This document shows positions 2,912 to 61,279 of a stretch of 64,000 nt of DNA, piece by piece. Source of the stretch: Patescibacteria group bacterium. GTDB lineage: Bacteria; Patescibacteriota; UBA1384; CAJBMM01. Under the pieces are notes generated by a model, which was given only the letters and a program-made list of their open reading frames with translations, searched no databases and was not told the DNA's origin. The stretch's first letter is position 1; every line of letters starts with the position of its first letter. The stretch covers positions 287,484-351,483 of the forward strand of contig JBAZWC010000002.1 of NCBI GenBank assembly GCA_041660565.1, given 5' to 3'. The position numbers were made by a program, and so were the translations under genes.

Positions 2912-3568
2912 ATGTTATACGTTGTAGCAACCCCAATTGGAAATTTAGAGGATATCACAGATAGAGCTAGACGAATCTTGACGTCGGTAAGCTATATTGC
3001 GTGTGAAGACCCGAATCACAGCCGGATATTATTACAAAAAATTGGGAGTGTAGCCAAAACTATTGCTTTGAATGCTCATTCAAAATCTCCTAAAGTTGAT
3101 CAAGTAATTTCTTTGCTGCTGGCCGGAAATGACGTGGCTTACATTACTGACGCGGGTACGCCGGGTATTTCTGATCCGGGTGGGATTTTGGTTGAGGCTG
3201 CTCACAATAAAGAGATTGAGGTTTGTCCAATCCCGGGGCCATCGGCAGTGGCTTGCGCGTTATCGGTTTGCGGGTTCTGTGCTGATCAATTTATTTTTTA
3301 TGGCTACATCCCCAAGAAAAAAGGTCGTCAGACATTTTGGCTAAAATTGCAAAACCAAAAAATAACCGCTGTGATGTTTGAATCTCCAGACCGAATTGCC
3401 AAGACATTGGCCGAAATTCGTGCTACAATTAAGCCTGATAGGCGGGTGTGTATTTGCCGCGAATTAACCAAACAGTTTGAACAAATATGGCGGGGCACTA
3501 TCGCGCAAATTGAATCCGCTAAAATTATGGCAAAAGGGGAATTTGTGATCGTTTTGGAAGGTGACTAA
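2912..3568 (+). CDS. rsmI: 16S rRNA 2'-O-methyltransferase RsmI (tetrapyrrole-methylase fold)
   Basis: MLYVVATPIGNLEDIT N-terminus, typical RsmI length, and it follows rsmA. Confidence 0.9.
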   Translation: MLYVVATPIGNLEDITDRARRILTSVSYIACEDPNHSRILLQKIGSVAKTIALNAHSKSPKVDQVISLLLAGNDVAYITDAGTPGISDPGGILVEAAHNKEIEVCPIPGPSAVACALSVCGFCADQFIFYGYIPKKKGRQTFWLKLQNQKITAVMFESPDRIAKTLAEIRATIKPDRRVCICRELTKQFEQIWRGTIAQIESAKIMAKGEFVIVLEGD

Positions 3569-5315: not shown

Positions 5316-5348
5316 TATAGATTCTGGGTCAAGCCCGGGATGACAATC
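5316..5348. repeat. Palindromic repeat family B, copy B1
   Basis: TATAGATTCTGGGTCAAGCCCGGGATGACA, near-identical to B2 at 40413. Confidence 0.8.
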
Positions 5349-15536: not shown

Positions 15537-15570
15537 GTGTAGGGGCGGACTCATATGTCCGCCCTCTGGC
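15537..15570. repeat. Palindromic repeat family C, copy C2
   Basis: GTGTAGGGGCGGACTCATATGTCCGCCC. Confidence 0.85.
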
Positions 15571-32923: not shown

Positions 32924-32930
32924 ACCGCCA

Positions 32931-33013
32931 ATTTTCTATTTTTATTTTAAAATTTTAAAACATTTGGAAATTCATTTAAAATTTATAATTTATACTTTAA
33001 AATTTAAGTGCTT
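32931..33013. repeat. AT-rich repeat family F (F7) upstream of tRNA-Leu
   Basis: tttattttaaaattttaaaacatttggaaattcatttaaaatttataatttatactttaaaatttaagtgcttgggg. Preceded by the hairpin CCAGGCGGTAAACCGCC at the SBP gene stop. Confidence 0.6.
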
Positions 33014-34730: not shown

Positions 34731-34806
34731 GCCCAGATAGCTCAGTGGTAGAGCGCTGCCCTGAAGAGGCAGGCGTGGTCAGTCCGATTCTGACTCTGGG
34801 CACCAA
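34731..34806 (+). tRNA. tRNA-Phe (anticodon GAA)
   Basis: GCCCAGATAGCTCAGTGGTAGAGCG, anticodon loop CTGAAGA, 3' GGGCACCA. Confidence 0.8.
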
Positions 34807-34950
34807 CCTTCGCCATCGCGTACGCTCGGACTATGGTTGGCAAGCCAATCAGTTTACTCTAAAGATTAGGTAATAATTGCGAAGGTTGCCGTCCGAAGTC
34901 GTTATGGAATAACGCGAAGGATGGCTAGGCAAATATAATGGAGTACGTTA

Positions 34951-35334
34951 ATGTCCACATTTTTCCCGCCAATAGATGGTACGAGTGCGCAATATGGCAC
35001 CATTTGGATCGTATTACTTCTTGCAACCGCGCTTTTAATTGGGCTATGGTGGTTCATGCACAAAGCAGTGATGCGAACATCAATATTACGTTATCTATCT
35101 ACAGTAGTGGTAATGGGGTTCATTGTTTACTGGTTTAGGTTCGAAAACGTAATGTACTTTACCGCAGATTGGATTATCTGGTTGTGGGTTGCGGTGGTGG
35201 CAATTGGCTTGCTCTGGTTGTTGTCGATCCGCCTGATAAAAGTGCCCAAAGTTAAAGCTAAACAATCAGTAGTAGATACCAAAACAAAATACCTTCCGAA
35301 ATCAAAAAATACAAAGCCAAGGATTAAAAAATAA
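34951..35334 (+). CDS. Membrane protein, unknown function (three TM helices, lysine-rich tail)
   Basis: RBS GGAG before ATG 34951. Hydrophobic helices. Confidence 0.6.
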   Translation: MSTFFPPIDGTSAQYGTIWIVLLLATALLIGLWWFMHKAVMRTSILRYLSTVVVMGFIVYWFRFENVMYFTADWIIWLWVAVVAIGLLWLLSIRLIKVPKVKAKQSVVDTKTKYLPKSKNTKPRIKK

Positions 35335-35343
35335 ATCAGTAAA

Positions 35344-35466
35344 TGTCATTTCGACCCTCGGAGAGCGTCAGCTCGACGGTGTTGGAGAAATCTTAAAAAG
35401 AATCCCTTCCAGTCTTTCTTGAGATCTCTCCAACCTCTCGACAAAGCTCGAGGGGTCGAGATGACA
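35344..35466. repeat. Palindromic repeat family A, full copy A3
   Basis: TGTCATTTCGACCCTCGG..GGAGAAATCTTAAAAAG..AGATCTCTCC..GAGGGGTCGAGATGACA. Confidence 0.85.
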
Positions 35467-35524
35467 ATTATCGGATCATAAAAATTATAAACAAAAATCA
35501 AACAAGAAATAGTTTAGGAGAACA

Positions 35525-36760
35525 ATGGTCAATAAGCCGAATACAGAAGAGACGATGGAAGAGCTAGTTACCGAGGCTGGTGAGAACCTGGTCCCATTTA
35601 AAGTTGGCAGCGTAGCCGACGTAGTTGTAACTGCAGTTACTAAAAACAGCATTTGGGTAGATGTTGCGGGCGTGGCGGTTGGAATAATTCCAGACCGTGA
35701 GTTTTCGTTTGGTACGGGGGATCTAAAAGTGGGCGATCATGTTGTGGCGTATGTTTTGTCTCAAGAAGACAAAGAGGGTCATGTAGTCTTAAGCTTGCGC
35801 AAAGCAGACAGAGAGCGCTTGTGGGTTACCTTAAAAGATAAATTCGAAAGCGGTGAAGTACTTCAAGCTAAAGTAGCCGAAGCAAACAAGGGTGGTTTGA
35901 TGGTAGAAATTGGCGGCGTGGTTGGTTTCTTGCCGATATCGCAGCTTGCGTCAAACCATTATCCTAGAGCAACTCAAGGGAATCGAGACGAGGTTTCAAC
36001 CAAACTTAATGAATTAATTGGCGAAACCATGAACGTCAAAATTATTAACTTTGATAAAATTACCAATAAATTAATCTTTTCTGAGCGCGCCGCCGGAGAT
36101 ACCGTTGCAGAAGAAAAGCTAAGCAAAATTAAAATTGGCGAGATCTTAAAAGGTAAAATTACCGGTATCGTAGATTTTGGTTTGTTTGTTAGTATTGGTG
36201 ATGATTTAGAGGGCTTGGTACACATCTCCGAAATTTCGTGGAAAAGGGTTAGTGATTTACGCACCATGTTTAACATTGGTGATGAAATCAACGTCTCCGT
36301 GACTGGCATAACCGACGGAAAAGTGTCGTTGTCAATGAAGCGATTGCTAGAAGACCCATGGGTAGAAGCAGCTAGTAAGTTTAAAGTAGGTGATATTGTA
36401 TCTGGCGTGGTTACAGGTGCTACCCGATTTGGCGTTTTTGTCCGCTTGAACGATACTGTTGATGGCCTGGTACACAAATCTGAGTTGACCGATGAAAATG
36501 TAGAAGATCCATCAACCATATTACCAATTGGTCACAAAGATCAGTTTAGAGTAATTAGCATCGATTCTCCGGCTCATCGCTTAAGTTTAAGCTGGAAGGG
36601 TCTAAAAGCCGAAGCAGACAAGCAAGCTGCCAAAACGGCCAAGAAATTACCGGAAAAAGCCGAAGTTCAAGAGGAAGTTAAAGAAGAAGTCAAAAAGGAA
36701 TCACCTAAAAAAGCACCTGCCAAAAAGCCGGCTGCCAAAAAAACCTCCAAAAAAGAATAA
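35525..36760 (+). CDS. rpsA: 30S ribosomal protein S1 (four S1 domains, lysine-rich tail)
   Basis: Repeated S1 motifs (GxV..G.VGFLP.S) and a KKxxAKK C-terminal tail. RBS TAGGAG. Confidence 0.88.
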   Translation: MVNKPNTEETMEELVTEAGENLVPFKVGSVADVVVTAVTKNSIWVDVAGVAVGIIPDREFSFGTGDLKVGDHVVAYVLSQEDKEGHVVLSLRKADRERLWVTLKDKFESGEVLQAKVAEANKGGLMVEIGGVVGFLPISQLASNHYPRATQGNRDEVSTKLNELIGETMNVKIINFDKITNKLIFSERAAGDTVAEEKLSKIKIGEILKGKITGIVDFGLFVSIGDDLEGLVHISEISWKRVSDLRTMFNIGDEINVSVTGITDGKVSLSMKRLLEDPWVEAASKFKVGDIVSGVVTGATRFGVFVRLNDTVDGLVHKSELTDENVEDPSTILPIGHKDQFRVISIDSPAHRLSLSWKGLKAEADKQAAKTAKKLPEKAEVQEEVKEEVKKESPKKAPAKKPAAKKTSKKE

Positions 36761-36769
36761 AGAGGTAAT

Positions 36770-37258
36770 ATGATTATTACGCGCAATTCTGAACATGCTT
36801 TAGAGTTTAAGACCAAAGAAGCGGCGATTAAAGTAAACACAGACGTGGTTATTAACGATGTAAAGATAGCTGGCCCGGGTGAATACGATGTGGCAAAGGT
36901 TTCGGTGATTGGGTTTCCTACAAAAACGCAGACGGTTTACCTGTTGGCTGTGGACGATGTTACAGTGTGCTATTTTTCCGTCAAACCGGAAAAATTGGCC
37001 ACCGATGTAATTGAAAAGATGGGTAATGTTGAGATGCTTGTGGTTACGCTTTGTGCAGACACAACTCCAGAGGAAGTGGTTAACTTAATTAACGCGCTTG
37101 AGCCGAACGTAGTGATGCCAATTGGTGATAAAGGTGCGGTGGAAAAATTAATGCAGACATCTGGGGCAGATAACACCGAGATTGATTCTTATAAAATTAC
37201 CAAATCCACCTTACCGGCTGACGACCGACAAATGATCGTACTCAAGTCGGGTAGATAA
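36770..37258 (+). CDS. Hypothetical protein
   Basis: Tightly follows rpsA. 162 aa, no recognisable motifs. Confidence 0.55.
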   Translation: MIITRNSEHALEFKTKEAAIKVNTDVVINDVKIAGPGEYDVAKVSVIGFPTKTQTVYLLAVDDVTVCYFSVKPEKLATDVIEKMGNVEMLVVTLCADTTPEEVVNLINALEPNVVMPIGDKGAVEKLMQTSGADNTEIDSYKITKSTLPADDRQMIVLKSGR

Positions 37259-37277
37259 TAGAGGATGGAATATGGAT

Positions 37278-37313
37278 CCGTAGGGGTGGACTCATATGTC
37301 CGCCCGTTTGTGG
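37278..37313. repeat. Palindromic repeat family C, copy C3
   Basis: CCGTAGGGGTGGACTCATATGTCCGCCCGTTTGTGG. Confidence 0.85.
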
Positions 37314-37322
37314 AGAGGCCTG

Positions 37323-38291
37323 ATGTTCAGCCCCGATCTAAGTAAATCTCTAAAAGACATTATCGCAAATTCACCTCGAGTTTTGCTGATTTGTCATGAA
37401 AAACCGGATGGTGACGCGATCTCGTCATTACTAGCAACTCGGTTAATGTTATTTGGCCTGAATTGTTTGGACGTGCAAATGGTCAGTATAGATGGCGTGC
37501 CAAAGGCGTTTGAGTTTTTACCTGATTCAAATTTGATAAAATCCGATTTTTTACGAGGTGATTTTGAAGTCATTATTACTTTGGACTGTGGCGACTTTAA
37601 ACGCACCGGATACTCTGATCGCATAGCTAAGATGATCGAAAAGGGCACCAAATTAATTAACATAGATCATCACCCTAAAAACGATATTTTTCGGATTGCA
37701 CACCTAAATTTAAGCGATACAACATGCGCCTCAACCACGCAAATAATCTATCAACTTTGCCAGTTTTTTCATCTCAAATTAGATGTCAAATTAGCAACTT
37801 TGTTATTTGTTGGGCTTTACACCGACACGGGTGGTTTTCAGCACATCGTAACGTCGCCGGAAGTGATGCGTATGGCGGCCGAGCTGGTCTCTAGCGGCGC
37901 GCAAACCAGGCTGATCAGCCAATACCTAACCGGCACCAAATCTTCGGCGCAATTAAAGTTGTGGGGGCGAGTGATTAGCCGAGCACGAGTAAGTAAGGAT
38001 GGGGTAGTGGTTGCGGGGGTAACTCAATCAGATTTGAAAGCAGTTGGCGCTAACGAGGAGGACGTAGCGGGGCTGTTAACGATGCTAGAGACCCTAGACC
38101 AGTGTAAAATGGCGATATTGTTATGTGAAACCGCGGATGGTGTGATTAAAGGTAGTTTGCGCTCTAACAACAGCCAAATTGATGTTTCTAAAATTGCCAG
38201 ATATTTTGGGGGCGGTGGGCACGTTAAGGCGGCCGGATTCACTCTTCCAGGGAAACTGGTTATAGACAAGCACAGCGTAAGCGTGGTATAA
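37323..38291 (+). CDS. nrnA: DHH/DHHA1 phosphoesterase, NrnA-like
   Basis: DHH motif LICHEKPDGDAISS and DHHA1 GGGGH motif YFGGGGHVKAAG. The ORF-track start at 37296 lies within repeat C3; ATG 37323 is more likely. Confidence 0.8.
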   Translation: MFSPDLSKSLKDIIANSPRVLLICHEKPDGDAISSLLATRLMLFGLNCLDVQMVSIDGVPKAFEFLPDSNLIKSDFLRGDFEVIITLDCGDFKRTGYSDRIAKMIEKGTKLINIDHHPKNDIFRIAHLNLSDTTCASTTQIIYQLCQFFHLKLDVKLATLLFVGLYTDTGGFQHIVTSPEVMRMAAELVSSGAQTRLISQYLTGTKSSAQLKLWGRVISRARVSKDGVVVAGVTQSDLKAVGANEEDVAGLLTMLETLDQCKMAILLCETADGVIKGSLRSNNSQIDVSKIARYFGGGGHVKAAGFTLPGKLVIDKHSVSVV

Positions 38292-38295
38292 TAAG

Positions 38296-38348
38296 ACAAA
38301 ATTCTAAATTTTAAATTTTTAATTTTAAAATAATTGGAATTTGTTTTT
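38296..38348. repeat. AT-rich repeat family F (F8)
   Basis: AAAATTCTAAATTTTAAATTTTTAATTTTAAAATAATTGGAATTTG. Confidence 0.7.
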
Positions 38349-38349
38349 G

Positions 38350-38374
38350 CCCAGGTGGTGGAATGGCATACAAT
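38350..38374 (+). pseudogene. Duplicated 5' fragment of tRNA-Leu, left boundary of the HNH insertion
   Basis: GCCCAGGTGGTGGAATGGCATACAA versus GCCCGGGTGGTGAAATTGGCATACAC of the intact tRNA-Leu at 38896. No tRNA body follows. Confidence 0.6.
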
Positions 38375-38420
38375 AATAACGATCATTGCAAACACCTCTG
38401 CCATATGCCATAATTGATTT

Positions 38421-38888
38421 ATGAAAGATAAATCGTGGACAGAAGCACAATTAAGGTCAGCCGCCCAAGAATCTCGAAGTATCCGTCAGATTTTACAGAG
38501 ACTTGGATTAGCAGAGGCGGGCGGAAATTACGCTCAGATTAAAAAATATTTGCACATTTACAATATCAATATGGAAAATATTAAAGGTAAATCTTGGTGC
38601 AAAGGGTTGAATGTCGAAGGACATCCAAGAGTGCAGTTAGATCAATTATTGGTAGAAAACAGTAGTTTCCAAAGTTACAAGCTAAAAAATCGACTTTTCA
38701 ATTCGGGGTTAAAGCCCAGAAAATGTGAAGAATGTGGGTGGTCAAAAATAACGCCAAGCGGTCATTTGCCTTTAGAAATACATCATATCAATGGGGATCG
38801 GTCTGATAACAGAATAAATAATTTAGTCATTCTGTGTCCCAACTGTCATAGTCAAAAGCCGAATTATCGTGGTAGGCGAAGAGATTAG
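38421..38888 (+). CDS. HNH homing-endonuclease-like protein
   Basis: HNH zinc-finger core CEECGW..HLPLEIHHINGDRSDNRINNLVILCPNCH. Confidence 0.8.
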   Translation: MKDKSWTEAQLRSAAQESRSIRQILQRLGLAEAGGNYAQIKKYLHIYNINMENIKGKSWCKGLNVEGHPRVQLDQLLVENSSFQSYKLKNRLFNSGLKPRKCEECGWSKITPSGHLPLEIHHINGDRSDNRINNLVILCPNCHSQKPNYRGRRRD

Positions 38889-38895
38889 TAAATAA

Positions 38896-38980
38896 GCCCG
38901 GGTGGTGAAATTGGCATACACGCGACACTTAAAATGTCGTTTCGAAAGAATTGCGGGTTCGAGTCCCGCCCTGGGCACCA
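38896..38980 (+). tRNA. tRNA-Leu (anticodon TAA), long variable arm
   Basis: Acceptor GCCCGGG/CCTGGGC, anticodon loop CTTAAAA, T-arm GGTTCGAGTCC, 3' ACCA. Confidence 0.82.
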
Positions 38981-38995
38981 AAAATTGCAGCATAC

Positions 38996-39030
38996 CCTCG
39001 TCATTCCGGGCTTGACCCGGAATCTATGTA
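38996..39030. repeat. Palindromic repeat family B, copy B3 (inverted orientation)
   Basis: CCTCGTCATTCCGGGCTTGACCCGGAATCTATGTA. Confidence 0.8.
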
Positions 39031-39041
39031 AAAAGAAAAAA

Positions 39042-39985: not shown

Positions 39986-40013
39986 GAATGCCCGTCCGAA
40001 GACGGGCATTTTG
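39986..40013 (+). terminator. Intrinsic terminator
   Basis: AATGCCCGTCCGAAGACGGGCATTTTGG. Confidence 0.7.
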
Positions 40014-40036
40014 GTGTGGCGGGTAGGCGCACTGGC

Positions 40037-40306
40037 CTACTCAGCGTTCTTGTTGGCAGGTACGATGCCAGAGCCGTCATAAGGCTCGATCTCGATGACG
40101 CCTGCAACGAATGCCTCGTCAGCCTTGGCGACGTTCCTGACAAATGTCCATTCACCGTCCGGGCCTTCGTGGAAACGCCCGATGATCGTACCAGTGTCTC
40201 GAACGCGATGGGGCAGCTTTCGTTCTGGCCCGTGGCCGTCCTGCATTCCAACGAGCGCATCAGTTTCCAACATGGCCGCAATTCCGGACAGACCCTCGTT
40301 CTCCAT
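40037..40306 (-). CDS. Hypothetical 89-aa protein on GC-rich micro-island I4
   Basis: RBS AAAGGAG 8 nt before the ATG (MENEGLSG..). GC content is visibly high. No motifs recognised. Confidence 0.55.
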   Translation of the reverse strand: MENEGLSGIAAMLETDALVGMQDGHGPERKLPHRVRDTGTIIGRFHEGPDGEWTFVRNVAKADEAFVAGVIEIEPYDGSGIVPANKNAE

Positions 40307-40412
40307 TGCTCGACTCCTTTGGTATCCGAATCGATGAAAAGATCGACAGGAGTGATTGCTTATCCTGCTATGCCGTGATCATATAATTATTTGTCTTGTG
40401 ATTCAAGCTATT

Positions 40413-40446
40413 TATATAGATTCCGGGTCGAGCCCGGAATGACAGC
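40413..40446. repeat. Palindromic repeat family B, copy B2
   Basis: TATATAGATTCCGGGTCGAGCCCGGAATGACAGC. Confidence 0.85.
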
Positions 40447-61248: not shown

Positions 61249-61279
61249 CCGTAGGGGCGGACCCATGTGTCCGCCCGCC
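61249..61279. repeat. Palindromic repeat family C, copy C5
   Basis: CCGTAGGGGCGGACCCATGTGTCCGCCCGCC. Confidence 0.8.

Follow-up and report, generated by a model that had tools for sequence, protein, structure and literature searches.

An HNH endonuclease gene coupled to tRNA-Leu(UAA) in Patescibacteria: a candidate homing cassette with its own copy of the tRNA

Homing endonuclease genes lodged in tRNA clusters are known from a few phages, in which they bias the inheritance of tRNA genes across the whole region. A group I intron sits in the anticodon loop of tRNA-Leu(UAA) in cyanobacteria and plastids, and a duplicated piece of a tRNA gene at the boundary of an element is the classic signature of tRNA-targeting integrative elements. 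Here, we analyze a stretch of 64,000 nucleotides (nt) from a Patescibacteria group bacterium (contig JBAZWC010000002.1; “the window”, whose positions serve as coordinates throughout), in which the gene for a small HNH nuclease, identical to MFA6082586.1, ends just before the sole tRNA-Leu(UAA) gene of this bacterium and is preceded by a copy of the first 25 nt of that tRNA. The HNH gene and the tRNA recur together as a unit in many species, and this unit appears to be a widespread, apparently undescribed mobile cassette that targets a tRNA gene, not a one-off scar. The literature that we searched, the coverage of which is incomplete and does not prove novelty, nowhere describes a patescibacterial HNH gene with a link to tRNA-Leu.

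Which of the described systems come closest? Phage T4 SegB recognizes a conserved motif of tRNA genes and drives the inheritance of itself and of the flanking tRNA genes; the SegB open reading frame (ORF) ends at the next tRNA, so that tRNA maturation cuts the SegB mRNA (PMC2330249). The geometry of the window locus is the same: 7 nt separate the HNH stop codon from the tRNA, and the ORF of one related locus enters the tRNA. The two systems differ in that SegB belongs to the GIY-YIG family, whereas the window nuclease is an HNH protein with presumed homing activity, and in that SegB recognizes many tRNAs by their T-psi-C arm, whereas the motif repeated here is the D-arm of one tRNA. Regulation offers a second parallel. 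I-TevI, I-TevII, and also I-TevIII repress their own synthesis via operators resembling the homing site that overlap the nuclease promoter, and I-TevI, segB, and mobE of T-even phages have inhibitory RNA hairpins that form only on read-through transcripts, with the nuclease promoter inside (PMC2988022). As in I-TevI, sequences like the presumed target overlap the HNH gene’s own promoter; unlike in I-TevI, there are two inverted half-sites, 32 bp apart center to center, which make up a candidate operator, and one of them is a physical remnant of the target gene.

By protein family, the comparison is with the HNH enzymes of the phage T5 tRNA region (F-TflI, F-TflII, F-TflIV; T5 ORF070) and with the phage protein cluster phrog_10822, which have the HNH core in common with the window protein; like the window gene, theirs are free-standing, lie among tRNA genes, and abut the next tRNA. 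By contrast, the window gene is part of a patescibacterial chromosome instead of a phage genome; its family is tied to one tRNA species, Leu(UAA), in 79 of 80 loci; its product (155 amino acids, aa) is shorter than many phage members, lacking their extra C-terminal region; and its promoter contains an inverted repeat derived from the target. The intron of cyanobacteria and plastids is an instance of the same tRNA species colonized by a selfish element; unlike that case, there is no intron here, the junction lies at tRNA position ~26 and not at 34/35, and the tRNA is intact.

The HNH gene occupies positions 38421–38888 (ATG at 38421) and is followed, after a 7-nt spacer, by tRNA-Leu(UAA) at 38896–38980; like all features between the DHH gene upstream and this tRNA, both lie on the plus strand. 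The preliminary description of this DNA had recognized the gene by its core, CEECGW...HHINGD...CPNCH, and Pfam bears this out, with matches above the cut-offs to HNH (28.7 bits, E 1.5e-6, cut-off 21.4) and HNH_3 (28.9 bits, E 8.7e-7, cut-off 24.8); the tRNA, likewise reported there as intact, is called by ARAGORN and scores 55.4 bits against the Rfam tRNA family. Among 42 homologs, C102, C105, H122, G125, and N134 of the HNH protein are invariant, and C139, C142, and H143 nearly so. The two CxxC pairs typical of the structural-zinc HNH subgroup that includes McrA (C102/C105 and C139/C142) are kept, and the His-Me finger signature is present, with H122, N134, and H143 as the catalytic His, the Asn, and the last His. 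In an AlphaFold2 model (predicted local distance difference test score, pLDDT, 86.8), a three-helix bundle at the N-terminus is joined by a flexible linker to a C-terminal beta-beta-alpha finger, which is composed of strands 119–122 and 135–138 followed by a helix at 140–144. As modeled, the protein is an N-terminal helix-turn-helix (HTH)-like domain joined to a C-terminal HNH domain with a zinc ribbon. PDB searches by sequence and fold found no close solved relative: the nearest entries by profile and fold are, for the HNH domain, EcoKMcrA and ScoMcrA, both weak (E 0.003–0.1), and the N-terminus has weak matches to HTH domains of the Fis or TyrR type. Membership of the HNH domain in IscB or ZorE was considered and not accepted, the NCBIfam matches being sub-threshold only.

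The phage connection is not confined to the HNH core. The match to phrog_10822, named “HNH endonuclease”, spans the full length of the protein (residues 2–153, E 1.6e-33); relatives occur in 246 phage records, 61 of which cover at least 80% of it. T5 ORF070 is 43.6% identical to the window protein over residues 75–152, and other phage members match over the full length at 32–40% identity. In every phage locus that was opened, those of Synechococcus phage S-CRM01, Gordonia phage GodonK, Enterococcus phage Bop, and T5 (ORF070), the homolog sits between tRNA genes, and the one in Bop is annotated “H-N-H endonuclease F-TflIV”. The wider HNH family comprises 7603 clusters at 50% identity (E ≤ 1e-10); because just 67 of them reach 1e-30, the subfamily associated with tRNA-Leu is a tight clade.

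How firmly is the HNH gene attached to tRNA-Leu(UAA)? A homolog scan with one genome per species returned at least 578 relatives of the HNH protein, and the best 80 loci were fetched (L numbers below denote loci of relatives; WIN denotes the window locus). In 78 of the 80, the HNH gene ends 5–74 nt before a tRNA-Leu(UAA) gene on the same strand, and the gap is mostly shorter than 30 nt across the set. L065 makes a 79th linked locus, its tRNA being present and partly N-masked; the sole unlinked locus, L088, is labeled Blastocatellia and has no tRNA nearby. In L065 (3501–4110), no stop codon closes the HNH ORF ahead of the tRNA, into which it continues; RNase P processing would therefore leave a stop-less mRNA. 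On the left side, the neighbor is a same-strand tRNA-Cys(GCA) gene within 200 nt in 40 loci; 39 loci have no upstream tRNA, and in the window’s clade a DHH gene occupies this place. The cassette, with tRNA-Leu(UAA) and the tRNA fragment, is also found in three metagenome-assembled genomes (MAGs) labeled Elusimicrobia (L018, L025, and L038). Like the label of L088, this may stem from mis-binning or mislabeling or from a true spread outside Patescibacteria.

Several pairs of loci share the unit and nothing around it. L042 and L043, whose HNH proteins are 79% identical, have only ~690 nt in common, i.e., the unit alone, and the same is true of L016/L031, L010/L011, L013/L051, and L041/L049. In these pairs, HNH identity is 76–82% and the common stretch measures ~600–750 nt, with nothing detectable in the 3.5 kb of flanking DNA on either side; other pairs of HNH loci are plainly syntenic.

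Is the HNH gene a necessary part of its locus? In four lineages (L002/L003; L006/L007/L100; L009; and the window), the gene order is S1, Lactamase_B_3, DHH, HNH, and tRNA-Leu(UAA), and the HNH proteins are 61–76% identical. In three of the four, SLT and the gene for alanyl-tRNA synthetase (AlaRS) follow the tRNA, with 1.4 kb of extra DNA between tRNA-Leu and SLT in the window; the downstream genes of L009 differ. Relatives with an empty site, the comparison proposed in the preliminary description, were found through a DHH homology search and inspection of the matching contigs: in L101, L105/L106, and L107/L108, DHH is followed by tRNA-Leu(UAA), and there is neither an HNH gene nor a tRNA fragment. 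In these lineages, a TATAAT or TATAGT hexamer at the DHH stop precedes the tRNA by 25–85 nt; SLT comes next in L101 and L105/L106, and AlaRS directly follows the tRNA in L108. By S1, DHH, and AlaRS identity, L101 is nested among HNH-bearing genomes (AlaRS and S1 of L101 and L006 are 69 and 75% identical, respectively). Because three related lineages are cleanly without it, the HNH gene is dispensable. Two properties used to recognize free-standing homing genes are thus seen at this site: (i) clean presence and absence at one position among close relatives; and (ii) independence of any intron or intein, with a conserved −10 hexamer as the gene’s own expression signal. A metagenome scan with the DHH protein yielded only relatives of 35–38% identity with no tRNA nearby, and no empty sites. 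In L102 (4461–4968) and L103, a different ORF of ~500 nt, apparently frame-broken, lies between DHH and tRNA-Leu(UAA); the site upstream of tRNA-Leu(UAA) may be a general insertion hot spot.

The same comparison bears on the age of the insertion, which had been presented as a small but clear footprint of mobile DNA. This footprint is not a recent one: the gene is found in the same place in relatives with HNH proteins of only 64–76% identity and its ratio of nonsynonymous to synonymous substitution rates (dN/dS) is about 0.1 (0.06–0.13 in the six pairs that allowed an estimate of dS), and the insertion is therefore old. Judging from these ratios, the HNH gene is under strong purifying selection and is kept functional as a nuclease gene.

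What does the cassette consist of, and what did it displace? The DHH/DHHA1 (NrnA-like) gene, assigned by Pfam, occupies 37296–38291, and 129 nt separate its stop codon from the HNH start codon. At its 3′ end lies a promoter-like site (38263–38292; TAGACA, an 18-nt spacer, and TG-TATAAT; 11/12 consensus), followed by an AT-rich phased tract of repeat family D1 (38299–38347) and then by the tRNA-Leu(UAA) 5′ fragment, GCCCAGGTGGTGGAATGGCATACAA (38349–38373). The fragment corresponds to tRNA positions 1–25, with 22 matches, 2 mismatches, and 1 indel. The preliminary description had thus seen the copy correctly, apart from its first position, which is 38349 and not 38350, and the match is significant, as that description required: its local score is 33, and none of 5000 shuffles of the 129-nt gap reaches it (mean 13.9, standard deviation, sd, 2.2, maximum 29). 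Throughout the window, the fragment is the best match to the tRNA 5′ end outside tRNA genes, the next unrelated place scoring 24, and its full acceptor strand is closer to tRNA-Leu(UAA) than to the other three tRNA-Leu genes of the window.

Where the fragment is long, it stops at the same place, tRNA position 25–27, before the anticodon stem; this holds for the aligned WIN, L002, L006, and L009 and for L010, L011, L014, L018, and L025, the leaders of which were read by eye. In loci preceded by tRNA-Cys, only the D-loop part of the fragment survives. Which of the two tRNA sequences, the fragment or the complete gene, is the original resident? In L006, the fragment, GGCAGACA, is closer to the tRNA of the empty relatives, GGCAGACAC, than to its own downstream tRNA, GGCATACAC; the fragment therefore reads as the 5′ end of the resident gene, and the intact tRNA as having come with the cassette. 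It had been proposed that the insertion regenerated the tRNA and left a 5′ remnant; a 5′ piece was indeed left over, and L006 makes the tRNA better read as cassette-borne than as regenerated. From these alignments, we infer that the cassette lies inside a former resident tRNA-Leu gene, with the junction at tRNA position ~26, and hence that 25 nt from the 5′ end of the resident gene stayed behind on the upstream side, beside the resident promoter. This promoter is probably the site at 38263–38292, since a TATAAT or TATAGT at the DHH stop precedes the tRNA in the empty-site L101, L105, and L107. The cassette itself would then comprise the promoter region with the second repeat arm (arm3, see below), the HNH ORF, and a complete tRNA-Leu(UAA), with the first 25 nt of the resident gene left upstream; we hold this delimitation to be likely. 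HNH is the only ORF of the 550-nt unit, and just 47 nt on the left and 7 nt on the right of it are non-coding.

The tRNA that accompanies the HNH gene has a preferred anticodon stem. This stem reads C(G/A)ACA in 44 and xxxCA in 62 of the 80 HNH-linked tRNAs, the acceptor stems of which vary widely. L006 and L009 also have the window stem, CGACA/TGTCG, and of the HNH-linked tRNAs that could be parsed, more carry this type than any other. By comparison, all four HNH-less tRNAs of the clade, which are related to one another and not independent, have xxGGA or xAAGA and none has CRACA; xxGGA/xAAGA is also the type of tRNA-Leu(UAA) in E. coli and B. subtilis. With only four related controls, the CRACA bias serves as a lead that suggests co-conversion or an immune allele.

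How is the tRNA downstream of the HNH gene made? In the 110 nt before the tRNA, no promoter scoring at least 10/12 was present in any of the 82 loci scanned; given this result and the short gap between HNH and tRNA, the tRNA is expected to be made from transcripts that cross the HNH gene. tRNA-Leu(UAA) is thus probably co-transcribed with HNH and carried by the cassette, and the crossing transcripts would start either at the HNH promoter or at the resident promoter (38263–38292).

The fragment had been regarded as a remnant of the tRNA; the HNH promoter shows that it is more than this. Its D-loop/D-stem part, AATGGCATACAA (38362–38373), forms the left arm (arm5) of an inverted repeat, the right arm of which (arm3, ACCTCTGCCATA; 38394–38405) is an inverted copy of arm5. 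Between these arms and across arm3 lies a promoter-like site (38386–38414) that consists of TTGCAA (38386–38391), a 17-nt spacer, and TG-CATAAT (38409–38414). Conservation of the D-loop part extends across Patescibacteria, where it forms one of the two repeat arms; the fragment is therefore not simply a decaying remnant. Arm statistics were obtained from 36 loci chosen for arm pairing, and enrichment was assessed in the same 82 loci as the tRNA promoters. Across the 36 loci, the arm5 consensus is AATGGTAtACgt. In the window, 7 of the 12 arm5 positions are paired by the reverse complement of arm3, TATGGCAGAGGT, the two arms being 20 nt apart, and a second TATGCCAT (38404–38411), which overlaps arm3, provides an alternative 8-bp pairing with arm5. 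A generic inverted-repeat search that allowed G-T pairs did no better than shuffles (8.6 vs. 7.6); the repeat was then searched by anchoring on the GG/CC pair. Pairing at 8 or more of the 12 positions was found in 38 of 82 loci, as compared to 1.6 in shuffles (maximum 5) and to 2 of 77 when a region 500 nt upstream served as the control.

The geometry of the repeat fits that of a promoter. The two arms bracket the −35 box: a TTGnnT lies in the spacer between the arms at the correct distance, arm3 fills the region between −35 and −10, and the extended −10 comes directly after it. In 65 of 80 loci, against 22.7 in shuffles, a TANNNT hexamer ends 4–10 nt ahead of the start codon, and in 40 the distance is exactly 6 nt; the window’s CATAAT likewise ends 6 nt before the ATG. 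A motif resembling a Shine-Dalgarno sequence occurs in just 2 of 80. Since the −10 hexamer ends 6 nt before the start and Shine-Dalgarno sequences are rare, the HNH mRNA is predicted to be leaderless. In upstream DNA, the loci are less uniform. L052 and L062, with HNH proteins 86% identical, differ directly upstream of the gene: a 15-nt tRNA-Leu 5′ fragment (3388–3402) lies 98 nt before the HNH gene of L052, which has no arm5, and a tRNA-Cys lies 35 nt before that of L062; the left junction thus varies. In L012, a remnant of the 3′ half of tRNA-Leu (variable arm and T arm; 1110–1133), which may be the trace of an older tandem unit, is found ~15 nt upstream of arm5.

Does the repeat act as DNA or as RNA? 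By sequence and by analogy with I-TevI, it looks like an operator made from the target sequence. Alternatively, arm5 and arm3 could pair in an RNA hairpin on read-through transcripts, blocking HNH translation or directing processing, with transcripts from the internal promoter, which do not include arm5, being translated. T4 provides the precedent for such an arrangement (PMC2988022), and here, too, the promoter lies inside the repeat. Arm positions 6, 8, 11, and 12 have compensatory pair types, and the stem runs far into the spacer in some loci, e.g., L049, L026, and L070. In-register pairing, which also speaks for the operator-like repeat, involves 81% of arm positions and falls to 29–44% when arm3 is slid by 1–3 nt; folding of the 44-nt segments is better than that of shuffles (mean z −3.4), and the arms are paired in 33 of 36 minimum-energy folds. 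These fold and register measures are biased, however, as the loci were preselected for arm pairing, and the leader of the window itself has no significant fold (z −0.5). The spacer between the arms measures 19–21 nt in 34 of 36 loci, i.e., it is fixed at 20 nt ±1, and its self-complementarity (3.47 of 7 positions vs. 3.10 expected, sd 0.21) does not exceed chance, which weakens the case for a hairpin. In addition, the arms are conserved in sequence beyond what pairing demands, and in most loci the start codon lies 15–20 nt past arm3, with no Shine-Dalgarno sequence to hide. The operator is favored on account of the fixed spacing, the sequence conservation of the arms, a spacer no more self-complementary than chance, the lack of a ribosome-binding site to mask, and the window leader, which has no significant fold; for this one step, a hairpin is a possibility of which we are doubtful. 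Both devices, a DNA operator and an RNA hairpin, could also be at work together, as they are for I-TevI.

Taken together, these observations make it probable, in our judgment, that the unit is a free-standing HNH homing-endonuclease cassette with the tRNA-Leu(UAA) gene as its specialized target and with a tRNA copy of its own. Such a cassette might work as follows. The HTH domain would bind the D-arm sequence of tRNA-Leu genes, and the HNH domain would nick or cut nearby in alleles that have no cassette. Repair would copy the cassette from the donor, with the D-arm fragment as the left and the tRNA body as the right region of homology; such homology arms are portable, and the cassette could therefore enter a tRNA-Leu gene in any genomic context. 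After insertion, an essential tRNA would be available only from transcripts that pass through the HNH gene. The nuclease would repress its own leaderless mRNA, with the pair of inverted, D-arm-like 12-mers around the −35 box serving as pseudo-target operators. One may go further and see in the locus a self-contained gene drive, which combines a cleavage-immune tRNA-Leu(UAA) allele with an atypical CRACA stem, a D-arm that doubles as portable homology arm and half operator, dependence of the cell’s only tRNA-Leu(UAA) on transcripts that cross the nuclease gene, and the ability to cross between hosts; its design would permit passage between distant Patescibacteria whatever the flanks. Of this extended version, crossing included, we are far less confident, and we put it forward only tentatively.

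What would this mean? A type of element known from phage tRNA clusters is seen here to reside in bacterial chromosomes, locked to a single essential tRNA throughout a very large, little-understood bacterial group. If the steps outlined above are true, the locus would be a compact natural drive that supplies both the homology arms and an immune version of its target; it would mark a path along which genes can pass between reduced genomes with otherwise little synteny; and it would provide a family of small DNA-binding nucleases whose target, the tRNA-Leu D-arm, is predictable. For annotation, an “HNH endonuclease” beside tRNA-Leu(UAA) in a patescibacterial MAG is part of one coherent element.

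Several observations weigh against an active homing cassette. Within the window’s clade, the HNH tree roughly follows the host tree, and the closest HNH pairs still have a dS of at least 0.67 (all pairs tested); for these two reasons, recent transfer is not demonstrated. The sharing of the unit alone between loci may have another cause, host rearrangement. A case for cross-phylum transfer built on MAG names was dropped, many taxon labels being unreliable. HNH identity (64–76%) equals that of S1, the best-conserved housekeeping neighbor, and exceeds that of DHH and AlaRS; a purely selfish gene is not usually conserved to this level, which hints at some benefit for the host. Much of the data also agrees with long vertical inheritance and a loss now and then. 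The linked tRNA retains the same D-arm motif as the arms, so that self-immunity lacks an explanation, and the window’s own repeat is weak, with 7–8 of 12 positions paired. Finally, cleavage, the cut site, autorepression, immunity of the linked allele, and co-transcription are steps that we infer from sequence, which for cleavage and the cut site counts as a further reservation. The proposal of a homing-endonuclease or mobile-cassette insertion, made in the preliminary description, is largely supported, by the empty sites, the fixed linkage to the tRNA in varying contexts, the units in unrelated flanks, and the phage tRNA-cluster kin.

Could the nuclease serve its host instead? In this alternative, a domesticated or host-beneficial enzyme is inherited vertically with tRNA-Leu(UAA) and no longer homes; it might cut foreign (e.g., phage) tRNA-Leu(UAA) genes or regulate the tRNA operon via the D-arm-like sites. 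A patescibacterial phage with tRNA-Leu(TAA) is on record, and the low dN/dS, the S1-like conservation, the agreement of the trees, and the absence of very recent transfers are all in line with such a role. The very strong conservation and the rough agreement with the host phylogeny make host benefit a live alternative. A useful gene would, however, hardly be as dispensable as this one, which is cleanly absent from three related lineages, nor does vertical inheritance readily account for near-identical units within unrelated flanks; the target fragment at the junction marks an insertion and not an ordinary operon, and the characterized relatives named in the literature that we read are all homing endonucleases of phage tRNA clusters. 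On balance, we consider a purely host-serving nuclease unlikely. The homing cassette and a benefit may also go together: hosts may keep the cassette since its nuclease destroys phage-borne tRNA-Leu(UAA) genes.

Two further explanations fare much worse. The duplicated piece of tRNA at the boundary is, in general terms, what an integrase-type islet would leave, and a local duplication of the tRNA 5′ end with HNH as a passenger would also produce it. Integrase-mediated islands are recognized by a recombinase and by duplication of the tRNA 3′ end, and this candidate was rejected: there is no integrase or recombinase gene in or beside the 550-nt unit and the duplicated piece is the 5′ end; moreover, the unit recurs in 79 species, always with HNH, and the geometry of the arms is conserved, which leaves both variants very improbable. 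Least probable of all is a degenerate group I intron of tRNA-Leu(UAA) that kept only its homing-endonuclease ORF: the tRNA species is the same, and the pairing of arm3 with the end of the upstream “exon” fragment loosely resembles an internal guide sequence, but the junction lies at tRNA position ~26 instead of in the anticodon loop, only 47 and 7 nt of non-coding DNA flank the ORF, no Rfam intron family matches even at E ≤ 1 (the tRNA being the only match), and with a complete tRNA downstream there is nothing to splice, and the candidate was rejected.

The surroundings of the unit are rich in repeats. A copy of repeat family B begins 19 nt after the tRNA (39000–39035) and had been taken for the right boundary of the element; the copy is there, and it belongs to a dispersed repeat unrelated to the unit. 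Two further copies occur in other contexts in the window (5317–5344 and 40416–40443), and family B is absent after the tRNA in every relative examined, so it is not an element boundary. The copies at 39000–39035 and 40408–40443 are inverted, 92% complementary, and bracket 1.4 kb that hold an ORF of 114 aa to which no Pfam family matches, a gene with a CYTH domain, a hairpin rich in G+C (39987–40010), and a region of 58–60% G+C (40020–40310) with an 89-aa minus-strand ORF, likewise unmatched in Pfam. Because relatives go straight from tRNA-Leu to SLT, this segment looks like a separate, B-bounded insertion.

Two other repeat families touch the locus. The D1 tract (AAATTTTAAATTTT...) has six copies in the window, among them the one upstream of the fragment and one upstream of tRNA-Leu(CAG) (32929–32977); a curved-DNA or UP-like element is one possible role for it, a transcribed tRNA leader another. 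Family D2, whose short palindromic unit is GTAGGGGCGGACTCATATGTCCGCCC, likewise has six copies, including those at 15539–15564, 61251–61276, and 37280–37305, the last of which overlaps the start of the DHH gene. An independent Logan contig of the same organism, L001, is identical to window positions 34748–38980; it starts within tRNA-Phe (34731–34805) and ends exactly at the 3′ end of tRNA-Leu (38980), which shows that assemblies tend to fragment at these tRNA/repeat junctions.

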